DNA of 64,000 bases, taken from NCBI GenBank assembly GCA_030867685.1, contig JAQOWU010000003.1:1054001-1118000 (forward strand), in the 5' to 3' direction. Under the pieces are notes generated by a model. It saw nothing but the letters and a program-made list of their open reading frames with translations, ran no database searches and was not told the origin of the DNA. Shown piece by piece: positions 11,700 to 27,964 of the stretch (within the stretch, counting starts at the first letter, position 1; each line of letters begins with the position of its first letter). A program made the position numbers and the translations under genes. The stretch is from Wickerhamiella versatilis. Its lineage: Eukaryota.

Positions 11700-11720
11700 G
11701 TGCGCACGTAAGCGAGCGAA

Positions 11721-11756
11721 GTAGGTGTAGGTGTTGGTGTTGGTGTAGGTGTAGGT
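11721..11756. repeat. (GTWGGT)6 hexamer microsatellite just upstream of TFB1
   Basis: gtaggt gtaggt gttggt gttggt gtaggt gtaggt. Confidence 0.85.
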
Positions 11757-12192
11757 ATCCCCCCTGTTTCTGACCATATATAGGGACAGAAATGTGGGAT
11801 TATCATGAGATGGTTAGAATGATAATAACTTGAGTGGATACGGCAGCCTTGCATTTTGGCCAAGAGAATCTATGAGTTGACAGGAATTGCCAGCAAACAA
11901 ATTATTTTTTGGGGGAAAGTTGCCGTTTTTTTGCCAATGGAACATTTCAATTTGCGTTGGACTTCGAGGTAACGCCACACCCGTGAAAAGTCTGATATAT
12001 GTATCGTGGAAAAACATGGCATCCTTGTCCCTATTTATCAATATAAGCATTGAGACTATTCACGGTAGGTGCTACTTTTAGGTGAGATCGCAATTTATTC
12101 CTTGTACTACGTCAGTGTACCCATAAATCGTTGCTCCTGCATAAATGACACATTCTCGCATATACTTAACTAATCGGGATGAATTTACGAGC

Positions 12193-12200
12193 TATATAAA
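12193..12200 (+). promoter_or_regulatory. TATA box of THI4
   Basis: TATATAAA 48 nt upstream of the THI4 ATG. Confidence 0.6.
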
Positions 12201-12239
12201 GGGCCCGTTACCCACATTGCTTATTTCACAGAACATTAA

Positions 12240-13190
<951 letters not shown>

Positions 13191-13309
13191 CCATAACAAC
13201 ACTTCACGCAATACCTTCGTTTTAAGGAAGCGCACTCAGCCCTTAGGGCTTAGCAGCATGAAGGTAAGTATATATGAAAAACTAACAGAAACAGAGAAAA
13301 GGAAATCTT

Positions 13310-13386
13310 CCACAGCGGGTGCCCCTTCAGGGCTGAGATTATACCGTTTGCACTCGATCAAATTCGTATTTGCGAGAGGATTGTGG
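13310..13386 (+). ncRNA. TPP riboswitch aptamer 1 (THI4 3' region)
   Basis: P1 CCACA/TGTGG; P2 GCGG/CCGT; GGTGC; P3 GCCC/GGGC; CTGAGA; ATAC; P4 CTC/GAG; GATC; P5 CAAAT/ATTTG; GCG...GGA. All core TPP aptamer elements are present in the correct order. Confidence 0.88.
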
Positions 13387-13412
13387 GTGATCTAGATTAG
13401 TTTTCATTTTAT

Positions 13413-13494
13413 GGTCACGGCGGGTGCCTTGTAACGAGGCTGAGAGTATACCGTTTGCACTCGATCAAGTTCATGCTTGCGTGAGGACGCGACC
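13413..13494 (+). ncRNA. TPP riboswitch aptamer 2 (tandem copy)
   Basis: P1 GGTCACG/CGCGACC (6 of 7 pairs); GCGGGTGC; P3 GCCTTG/CGAGGC; CTGAGA; ATACCGT; P4 CTC/GAG; GATC; P5 CAAG-TTCAT-GCTTG; GCGTGAGGA. Confidence 0.9.
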
Positions 13495-13908
13495 CAATTA
13501 GAATTAGTTACTATCTTTAAAATACCTGTTCAGGGTTATGTGCAGGCGACGGTCTCCTGTGTCCTTAGAGAGGGTCTTTGTATTGCCCAAATATACACAA
13601 GGACAATGATCTGGGATTTGATTTGCACTACGCAAAGGAAACGAAGGTCGATTATTGGGTACAGGGAGTCGAAGTCGAGCGGTCTTAGAATTATTACTTG
13701 TTTATTGAAAGACACCCATATATTCCAGTACAATCAATAAATTTGCATCTTTGAGCAAATAAATTTTACCTGCCCAGAAATAGAAAGGTGGAAACTGCTT
13801 AATCCGTATGAAAATAGGGCCACCGAGCTTAGTACATAATACGACAATGACGTATGTGTGTCTGCAAGTTTAGTTAGCTATCTCGCTTAGTTAATCTGCG
13901 CATTGCAC

Positions 13909-14266
13909 ATGTCTGTCTCAAGTGCGGACTTGATGCCAACCAATATACCTGGTTCTGTCTTAGCAGCACTTCAGAAAGATTACTACATTTCTCCCTGCGG
14001 TAATCGTGTTGATGCGTTGCCTAAAGGTGCAAGTGCTTATTGTTGTGAAGACGGATCGTCTCGTATGCTAGAGCCAATTAATGAAAACGAACATGTAAAG
14101 TGTAGCAATGGTGAAGGTGGAAAAAAACTTTCTTGACGTTGGAGATATTTTGTGCTCTACAGAGGTTGAATTCAGTGAGGATGGCGTGAAAACATCATTT
14201 AAGGCTGAGAGGCTCATCGATGAAGCTCCACCATTACTTTCGGAGGTAGCACGGAAATTCTTATAA
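13909..14266 (+). pseudogene. Frameshifted paralogue of the adjacent Cys-rich orphan gene
   Basis: Aligns with 14520-14909 over its length. One extra A in the A7 run (14121-14127) causes TGA at 14134-14136, while the homologous frame continues (DVGDILCSTEVEFSEDG...PPLLSEVARKFL) to TAA 14264-14266. Confidence 0.7.
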
Positions 14267-14519
14267 TTCTTAACATCAGATACGTGTGGCTGAGGGTCAA
14301 ATTATGATTGCATAGAGATCAAATGACTTACGTGTTTAACATATTGACTCTCATAATGTGTACTAGGCGATAATTGTAATTTTTAGTGTTTAATATCAAT
14401 GCGTCGTTACATTACAAGTAGTTATGAGGCTGATAATTCAAGTCTAACACAGAATACACCAATGACGTATGTACCTGTAAGGTTAGTCAATTATCTTGCT
14501 TACTTAGTGCAGTTAGCAC

Positions 14520-14909
14520 ATGTCTATCTCAAGCATAATCGCAAATTCAACCAATACGCCTACTACCAGTTTAGCAACTTCGAGTGGCCCAGCTATAATA
14601 GAGTTTCATCCAGCTCCGTCTGGTTACTACAATACTGGTTGTGGAGATCACGCTTATGCGGTGCCTCATGGTGTGGTTACTTACTGTTGTGAAAATGGAG
14701 TATCCCATATACTATCGCCATTTGGTGCGAATGAACATCCGAAGTGTAGTAATGGTGAAGGTGGCAAGAACTTTCTTAGCGTTGGTGATGTGCTATGTAC
14801 AACTGAAGTTGAATTTAATGAGGATGGCTTGAAAACATCATTTAAGGCTTATAGGCTCATCGATGAGACCCCACCATTACTATCTGATGTGGTAAAGGGA
14901 CTGATATGA
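14520..14909 (+). CDS. Small Cys-containing orphan protein (129 aa), tandem-duplicated
   Basis: Codon-wise conservation with the upstream copy (YCCE.G.S..L.P...NEH.KCSNGEGGK) supports coding status. Confidence 0.7.
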   Translation: MSISSIIANSTNTPTTSLATSSGPAIIEFHPAPSGYYNTGCGDHAYAVPHGVVTYCCENGVSHILSPFGANEHPKCSNGEGGKNFLSVGDVLCTTEVEFNEDGLKTSFKAYRLIDETPPLLSDVVKGLI

Positions 14910-27880: not shown

Positions 27881-27964
27881 TGCCACCTAGCGGAATTGAA
27901 CCACTGACCTTTGCATGACTTCGTAAGTACAAGTGCAACGTTCTACCACTGAACTAAGGATGGC
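27881..27964 (-). tRNA. tRNA-Thr(UGU) with an 11-nt intron (27917-27927)
   Basis: Reverse complement: GCCATCCT TA GTTC AGTGGTA GAAC G TTGCA CT TGT A [CTTACGAAGTC] A TGCAA AGGTC AGTGG TTCAATT CCGCT AGGTGGC A. A T7 Pol III terminator follows at 27865-27871. Confidence 0.92.

Follow-up and report, generated by a model that had tools for sequence, protein, structure and literature searches.

Can a eukaryotic riboswitch act on mRNA 3'-end formation or mRNA decay, and what does a second aptamer add? The THI4 locus of the yeast Wickerhamiella versatilis raises these testable questions. Within a 64,000-nt stretch of its genome (contig JAQOWU010000003.1, positions 1,054,001 to 1,118,000 of the forward strand; called the window here, with positions counted from its first letter), two thiamine pyrophosphate (TPP) aptamers lie one after the other behind THI4, a thiamine-synthesis gene. 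The eukaryotic TPP switches characterised to date all act via splicing (PMC9544697 and PMC5997356, both in excerpt); the pair in the window sits in a mature, unspliced 3' untranslated region (3'UTR). One well-tested set of unspliced 3'UTR aptamers, that of diatoms, proved unresponsive to thiamine. THI4 is a costly single-turnover enzyme, and its mRNA bears two intact-looking aptamers. The first choice among the readings weighed below, held tentatively, is that TPP controls the 3'-end formation or the stability of the THI4 mRNA without splicing.

Two TPP aptamers downstream of THI4

The THI4 open reading frame (ORF) occupies 12249-13190 on the + strand. It encodes 313 amino acids, residues 51-290 of which match the complete Pfam Thi4 domain (E 8.9e-105). 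A TATA-like box lies ~55 nt before the ATG, and the stop codon, TAG, is 13188-13190. A sequence-only reading of this stretch had placed two complete sense-strand TPP aptamers after the gene and had named a search with the Rfam TPP model, RF00059, as a check. The search bears it out. When the whole window was scanned with cmscan, RF00059 matched the + strand at 13305-13398 (60.4 bits, E 2.3e-09) and at 13410-13504 (67.0 bits, E 5.5e-11). Both matches cover model positions 1-105 and exceed the gathering score of 54.3. The third and last Rfam match at gathering score in the 64 kb is a tRNA. The tandem TPP aptamer feature is thereby confirmed.

Aptamer 1, measured from P1 to P1', spans 13310-13386 and begins 120 nt past the THI4 stop codon. 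Aptamer 2 spans 13413-13494 and its 7-bp P1 begins 223 nt past the stop codon. A U-rich spacer of 26 nt (13387-13412) separates them, and all three distances agree with those first read from the sequence. Likewise, no aptamer was found upstream of or inside THI4: cmscan run with E up to 10 over 11700-14400 recovered only these two, and a home-built covariance model (R1) detected no other TPP aptamer in the window. R1 scores aptamer 1 at 90.6 bits, a value to be read with the caveat that aptamer 1 belongs to the R1 seed. The placement that characterises the fungal type I switch, in a 5' intron before the start codon, is not seen here.

Both copies show the three-way P1-P5 architecture in the cmscan alignment, apart from a few non-standard pairs. 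In aptamer 1, P1 is formed by 13310-14/13382-86, P2 by 13315-18/13344-47, P3 by 13321-24/13330-33, P4 by 13353-55/13376-78, and P5 by 13359-62/13369-72. In aptamer 2, the corresponding stems are 13413-19/13488-94 (P1, with one A.C mismatch in its middle), 13420-23/13451-54 (P2), 13426-30/13436-40 (P3), 13460-63/13482-85 (P4), and 13466-69/13476-79 (P5). The remaining blemishes are a C.A pair at the P3 tip of aptamer 1 and an innermost P4 pair that is G.A in aptamer 1 and G.U in aptamer 2. The CTGAGA of J3-2 (13333-38 and 13440-45) and the GCG of J5-4, the two ligand-contact motifs, are present in both. CUGAGA has been termed universally conserved (PMC9544697, in excerpt). The minimum-energy fold of aptamer 2 in isolation is the canonical TPP fold. 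Thermodynamic stability is unexceptional in both copies (z-scores of -0.70 and +0.14), as is normal for ligand-dependent aptamers.

The transcript that carries the aptamers

Which transcript contains the pair? Four public RNA-seq runs carrying the same species label were mapped to 12800-14300. One run (X19) is random-primed and paired, whereas the other three (X22-X24) are poly(A) libraries of single reads; reads are 101-151 nt long and the libraries are unstranded. In all four runs, RNA coverage continues without a gap from the THI4 coding region across both aptamers and drops just after aptamer 2. Summed depth in X19, X22, X23, and X24 is 545, 100, 199, and 96 around the stop codon (13157-13207); 245, 61, 161, and 77 in aptamer 1 (13310-13360); 157, 60, 162, and 57 in aptamer 2 (13412-13462); 23, 33, 37, and 18 at 13514-13564; and 0, 3.9, 1.9, and 0.3 at 13820-13870. 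In other words, aptamer 2 retains 29% (X19), 60% (X22), 82% (X23), and 60% (X24) of the depth at the stop codon. The leader between stop codon and aptamer 1 (13191-13309) is covered about as deeply as the coding region. Depth is near zero throughout 13769-13870, so the signal is not DNA carry-over. The aptamers had been predicted to lie in the 3' region of the THI4 transcript, and the continuous coverage agrees; that THI4 transcripts never reach the aptamers, a finding that would have told against the prediction, is contradicted by RNA depth that runs through both.

No splice joint was found in 12800-14300 in any of the four runs at depths of up to ~500, although these runs are of unknown thiamine status and unstable isoforms could be missed. 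The next + strand gene, which contains a small ORF at 13909-14136, has its own transcription start at 13900-13902 and bounds the THI4 unit. This start is marked by oligo-like loose ends that finish in GGG just before 13900 and 13902 (29+8 reads in X22, 10+10 in X23, and 13+18 in X24); the GGG-ending oligo is presumably a cap-switch primer. Read orientation is informative as well. Over 13412-13513, minus-orientation reads exceed plus-orientation reads by ~3 to 1 in X22-X24. The same excess occurs at the 3' end of the neighbouring gene, and the reverse occurs at the 5' end of that gene. Taken together, the unbroken coverage, the lack of joints, the start at 13900, and the orientation bias support a polyadenylated, + strand THI4 mRNA whose 3'UTR contains both aptamers and whose 3' ends fall mostly at ~13490-13560. 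From the unbroken coverage by reads of 101-151 nt, we infer that a single molecule spans the coding region and both aptamers.

These data also bear on whether the aptamers belong to a separate transcript, being located either in a 5' intron of the gene downstream or in a small noncoding RNA that starts from ATG-AAG-GTAAGT at 13258. The sequence ATGAAG|GTAAGT (13258-13269) resembles a mini first exon, and there is a precedent in two Brettanomyces species, in which riboswitches occur in small transcripts of poor coding potential (Donovan et al., PMC5997356). However, 5'-end signatures between 13190 and 13500 amount to just 3 reads, all from X23 and at 13435; the coverage runs on from THI4 without joints; the downstream gene starts at 13900; and the minus-orientation excess over 13412-13513 is the mark of a 3' end rather than a 5' end. 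A separate transcript is largely refuted and is the least probable of the explanations, very improbable indeed. Its intron version was rejected in view of the lack of joints and the start at 13900.

Where does the THI4 mRNA end? In the poly(A) libraries, coverage collapses in the 3' tail at 13495-13564, which is the main region of THI4 mRNA 3' ends. In X19, 43 fragment ends fall at 13491-13493, the last bases of the aptamer 2 P1, against a depth of ~50 per orientation. Depth in X19 also drops between 13259-13309 (380) and 13310-13360 (245) and is level from there to 13411. This step would fit a second, proximal set of ends before aptamer 1 but is suggestive only. Pile-ups at 13276 and 13344 in X22-X24 were considered as further RNA ends and rejected; a pair at 12863(+)/12871(-), 9 nt apart, looks like library cut-site bias.

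In X22-X24, 5-20% of the depth persists past 13565, and the next gene starts just ~400 nt after aptamer 2. Both observations would fit a model in which the aptamers gate THI4 termination and thiamine status tunes the small downstream genes by transcriptional interference. However, the downstream gene has a strong start of its own and a depth far above the read-through. Furthermore, its product has no known thiamine link, belonging to no Pfam family and having a 129-aa paralogue that lacks an Atlas match. Control by read-through is therefore quite improbable.

Duplication, upkeep, and origin of the pair

The pair arose by tandem duplication of a unit of ~107 nt. Direct repeats in the region are spaced 105-107 nt apart, and alignment of the two units shows that the repeat reaches past the aptamer into a common TAG-ATTAGTT tail. 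The tail of repeat unit 1 (TAGATTAGTT...) is held in the spacer and recurs after aptamer 2. An identical 22-mer had been noticed in both copies at the outset; it occurs exactly twice in the window, at 13340-13361 and 13447-13468, and no match to it with up to 3 mismatches arose in any of 100 window shuffles. P2 and J2-4 are the same in both copies, as are the three outer pairs in P4 and in P5.

The copies had also been described as differing in P1, P3, and P5 while still pairing. Comparison of the cmscan alignment with the sequence identifies four such pairs, each altered on both sides. P1 pair 1 is C-G in aptamer 1 and U-A in aptamer 2, P1 pair 5 is A-U and G-C, P3 pair 4 is C-G and U-A, and the innermost P5 pair is A-U and G-C, respectively. 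A further instance of the P5 change comes from outside the window. In each RNA-seq run, a few reads fit only 13330-13386 and bear other flanks (a foreign left flank in 3-8 reads per run in all four runs, and a foreign right flank in 4-5 reads each in X19, X22, and X23). Compared with the aptamer 1 core, these reads show three differences, at 13342, 13362, and 13369; the latter two replace A-U with G-C in P5 and so compensate for each other. Elsewhere in the genome, then, there is a third TPP aptamer that is expressed. The four pairs changed on both sides between the tandem copies, together with the same P5 swap in the third copy, point to selection on structure after duplication.

A broader comparison was made by aligning the window pair with four other aptamers. 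In this six-aptamer alignment, 85.6% of pair cells are standard, as compared with 31-54% when partners are slid by 1-3 columns, and 11 of the 22 pairs show changes on both sides. CTGAGA and GCG are among its invariant columns, and all the other invariant columns are also kept in both copies.

Strain variation is a further source of information. X19 derives from another strain, which differs from the window by 2 single-nucleotide polymorphisms (SNPs) and one inserted G (after 13291) in 12800-13552. It has no differences of its own in 13292-13552 and hence none in the aptamers. The X19 sequence breaks at 13552, and ~7% of positions differ beyond this point, giving a sharp boundary between conserved and diverged sequence.

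How unusual is this arrangement? A metagenome scan yielded 80 THI4 loci (L001-L080) with protein identities of 50-78%, none of which is a close relative. RF00059 at its gathering score detects an aptamer in just 4 of the 80. R1, built from the six aligned aptamers and used in place of RF00059 for these loci, finds one aptamer in each of 40 (E 1.4e-4 or better), the 4 seen by RF00059 included. RF00059 undercounts so badly because fungal aptamers with long P3 inserts score below its threshold; low scores for fungal aptamers with a long P3 are also stated in PMC11683625 (in excerpt). In 38 of the 40, the aptamer is upstream on the sense strand, and the median distance from its end to the THI4 match is 142 nt (range 60-285); set beside these, the window pair bears on how riboswitches move within a gene. 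One aptamer lies downstream on the sense strand (L045). One lies on the opposite strand, far upstream (L066:106-216, minus strand), ~2.6 kb from a Thi4-family match on a GC-rich contig (GC 0.67), and probably serves another gene in a bacterium or archaeon. None of the 80 loci has a tandem pair, and 41 of them had at least 350 nt after the THI4 match, enough to show a 3' pair. The arrangement, which the sequence-only reading had called unusual, is unusual among these loci, the sole 3' aptamer being plant-like. At that locus, L045 (1311-1643), THI4 has a long C-terminal extension, which we take to be plant THI1-like, GTAAGT occurs ~25 nt after the stop codon, and the aptamer (RF00059, 68.1 bits) lies ~235 nt after it. 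This layout is the one reported for embryophyte THI1 outside the seed plants (PMC11521341, in excerpt).

The window aptamers also differ in sequence from the common fungal THI4 type. Their P2 is GCGG/CCGT rather than GCCGG/ACGGC, their P4 is CTC/GAG rather than CTTG, and their L5 loops are TTCGTA and TTCATG rather than ATAATA/G. The P4 variant, CUC/GAG in the RNA of both copies as first read, is borne out by the sequence and occurs in none of the 40 other THI4-linked aptamers aligned. Because P2, P4, and L5 are unlike the fungal type, the pair may have an origin other than the ancestral 5' THI4 switch.

Plant switches are among the closest known systems. A 3'UTR aptamer had been described as the plant THIC arrangement, and this holds for THIC. 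However, 3'UTR TPP aptamers also occur at THI1, the THI4 orthologue, in embryophytes but not seed plants (PMC11521341, in excerpt), are predicted in diatoms (PMC9544697, in excerpt), and have been reported at Postia eIF5B (Mukherjee et al. 2018, PMC5882874, in excerpt). Plant THIC and THI1 resemble the window in having a sense-strand aptamer in the 3'UTR of a thiamine-synthesis mRNA, with THI1 being the orthologous gene (excerpts of PMC11521341 and PMC5997356), and in having a GTAAGT-type donor and a processing signal between stop codon and aptamer. They differ in carrying one aptamer and a spliced 3'UTR intron, whereas the window, in a fungal host, has two aptamers and no joints in the four RNA runs. 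The diatom THIC and SSSP aptamers share with the window a 3'UTR location, no observed splicing, and a P1 that overlaps or abuts the mRNA 3' end; the predicted poly(A) site of PtTHIC overlaps P1, and in the window X19 ends cluster at 13491-13493. Unlike the pair, the diatom aptamers are single and belong to other genes, and by experiment they are unresponsive to thiamine (PMC9544697 for all three points, in excerpt).

The Neurospora type I switches of fungal THI4 and NMT1 share the ligand class, the THI4 gene, and the kingdom with the window. They are upstream and single and work through alternative 5' splice sites, whereas the window pair is downstream. Bacterial tandem TPP switches lie in 5' leaders, and each aptamer has its own terminator. 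The statement that tandem TPP aptamers are known mainly from bacteria needs correction, since the 5'UTR intron of Saprolegnia NMT1 contains two TPP aptamers, ascribed to duplication (Mukherjee et al. 2018, PMC5882874, in excerpt). These resemble the window pair as two similar aptamers in one transcript, but they are in a 5'UTR intron rather than a 3'UTR. [quoted passage not shown]

A literature search found no description of a tandem or 3'UTR TPP riboswitch at a yeast THI4; the supplementary data of Donovan et al. 2018, outside this search, may list the locus or its relatives. In a 2024 survey of 156 fungi (PMC11683625), the word 'tandem' is absent from the main text, and no 3'UTR aptamer placement was found in the portion available. 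Exact-pattern scans for the aptamer core gave no match in viral and genome contig collections, which hold few or no yeasts and are thus silent on rarity. The TPP riboswitch class itself is known; the position and number of the aptamers were not found described for THI4 of fungi.

Routes of control over THI4, and neighbouring genes

How could the pair act on THI4? The preferred reading, control of 3'-end formation or stability without splicing, is suggested by the anatomy of the 3'UTR, the lack of splicing in four libraries, and the RNA ends at the edge of aptamer 2. When TPP is abundant, each aptamer would fold around its ligand and the 3'UTR would be refolded. The refolded 3'UTR would alter the end or the lifetime of the message and lower THI4 output, with no splicing involved. 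A candidate proximal end lies just before aptamer 1, at a TATATA and an A-rich run. Candidate distal ends lie at or just after the P1 of aptamer 2 and would give a 3'UTR of 300-370 nt. Such a 3'UTR is long for yeast and could mark the message for decay. If each aptamer guarded a step of its own, the full effect would require ligand on both and the response would be steeper. The idea that two aptamers sharpen feedback is taken from bacterial tandem switches.

A bolder form of this proposal, possible but doubtful, would make the locus a eukaryotic riboswitch that dispenses with splicing altogether. In this yeast, cleavage/polyadenylation or exonucleolytic decay of the THI4 mRNA would be under the direct control of the 3'UTR tandem, the aptamer 2 P1 would set the 3' end, and the two aptamers, working in series, would yield a steep two-ligand response. 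Once the ancestral 5' switch had been lost, the pair would have come from a different riboswitch lineage, in keeping with its P2, P4, and L5 being unlike the fungal THI4 type.

A search for an expression platform centred on the leader. It contains, in order, a hairpin (13235-13253), a 5'-splice-site-like GTAAGT (13264-13269), a TATATAT (13269-13275), and an A-rich run (13277-13305) that includes a branch-point-like ACTAAC (13281-13286), all on the + strand. The TATATA with the A-rich run resembles, in our judgement, a budding-yeast poly(A) signal. Three leader segments have perfect 8-nt complements downstream: 13204-11 pairs with 13477-84 (P5'/P4' of aptamer 2), 13255-62 (AGCATGAA, just 5' of GTAAGT) with 13470-77 (L5/P5' of aptamer 2), and 13278-85 (the ACTAAC box) with 13397-404 in the spacer. 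In addition, 13235-48 can pair at 12 of 14 positions with 13324-37, which covers P3 and CTGAG of aptamer 1. The free fold of 13191-13560 pairs 13202-10/13478-86 (p 0.98) and 13235-43/13329-37 (p 0.95) and is 13.7 kcal/mol lower in energy than the fold in which both aptamers are enforced; it could plausibly represent the ligand-free state.

We nevertheless do not claim that the leader evolved as an anti-aptamer, because leaders with shuffled sequence perform nearly equally well. Duplex energies gave a mixed result: the observed value was reached by 6 of 500 mononucleotide shuffles in the case of aptamer 1 and by 129 of 500 in that of aptamer 2. The idea of a degenerate third aptamer within the leader was also rejected: 13240-13253 is 79% identical to P3 and CTGAG of aptamer 1, and cmscan with E up to 10 gave no TPP match there. 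Separately, a perfect 10-nt inverted repeat (13213-13222/13639-13648, 416 nt apart; ~0.1 expected by our own estimate) encloses the aptamer region, and just 5-20% of transcripts reach its distal arm at 13639-13648.

The same leader elements invite comparison with plants, in which splicing of a 3'UTR intron removes a proximal poly(A) signal. Applied to this locus, TPP would control the use of GTAAGT at 13264, as in THIC and THI1, with CAG at 13313-15 (on the P1/P2 border of aptamer 1) or at 13531-33 as the acceptor. The order of stop codon, 5' splice site, TATATA/A-rich signal, and aptamer is the plant layout seen in L045, the 8-nt complements of AGCATGAA to L5/P5' of aptamer 2 and of the ACTAAC box to the spacer could serve such a switch, and splicing is the mode of every characterised eukaryotic TPP switch (PMC9544697 and PMC5997356, in excerpt). 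However, no joint was found in any run at depths of 80-470 over 13264, the long unspliced form predominates in each run, and the complementarities are not beyond chance by either the shuffled leaders or our own estimate. Only ~21 nt separate GTAAGT from ACTAAC, and this is short for the distance from 5' splice site to branch point in a budding-yeast intron. A plant-type switch is thus rather unlikely.

Several observations weigh against the preferred reading. No poly(A) loose ends were listed, so there is no mapped poly(A) site, and the proximal end site rests on the depth step in one run, X19. The leader pairings are not beyond chance: the gap of 13.7 kcal/mol compares with 11.5 +/- 3.3 kcal/mol for 150 dinucleotide-shuffled leaders and was reached by 31 of the 150, and the leader-aptamer pair count was reached by 17 of them. 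Perfect inverted repeats of at least 8 nt number four in 501 nt, as compared with ~2 expected by our own estimate. The L5 loop docks on P3, and both L5 loops (TTCGTA and TTCATG) diverge from the ATAATA/G of most other THI4-linked aptamers, so TPP affinity could be lower. The usual AUAAU-type L5 is common rather than strictly defining, and both copies score above threshold regardless. The THI4 coding region is equally similar in the X19 strain (2 SNPs in 12800-13190), and the low divergence may reflect a haplotype block rather than constraint on the 3'UTR. Finally, the well-conserved diatom 3'UTR TPP aptamers did not respond to thiamine in reverse-transcription quantitative PCR, rapid amplification of cDNA 3' ends, or reporter assays (PMC9544697, in excerpt).

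Some of these observations would equally suit aptamers that bind, or once bound, TPP but no longer regulate THI4, whether as a recent insertion or duplication or in the manner of the diatoms. The diatom precedent (PMC9544697, in excerpt), the divergent L5 loops, the mismatches in aptamer 2 P1 and aptamer 1 P4, and the want of a statistically supported expression platform all favour such a silent or relic state. The aptamer 1 core (13330-13386) has just 3 differences from the third copy, which suggests recent copying. On the other hand, two copies are retained with four compensatory pair changes, both score above the Rfam threshold, no strain differences fall within them, and their siting behind a thiamine-synthesis gene would be an odd coincidence. 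A silent pair is accordingly judged distinctly unlikely. The preferred reading, control of the 3' end or the stability of the message, is open to direct test, since public RNA-seq shows the locus to be expressed and such yeasts are commonly cultured and engineered. If it holds, a compact vitamin-responsive 3'UTR cassette would be a useful tool for yeast engineering.

Beyond THI4, the genes are compact and mostly intron-free, and ordinary fungal housekeeping genes are present. The region downstream of the aptamers contains two tandem, paralogous small Cys-rich ORFs on the + strand, 13909-14136 (75 aa) and 14520-14909 (129 aa), which are 42% identical and lack a Pfam family. The first is well expressed from the start at 13900-13902. 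The X19 strain lacks one A of the A-run at 14121-14127 (25 of 27 reads), and the first ORF is thereby shifted in frame, so the 75-aa form may be a strain-specific truncation. Elsewhere in the window, the tRNA gene at 27881-27963 on the minus strand (Rfam tRNA, 45.8 bits) has a 13-nt insertion, an intron, after the anticodon loop. An intron-bearing tRNA is consistent with a eukaryotic nuclear genome.

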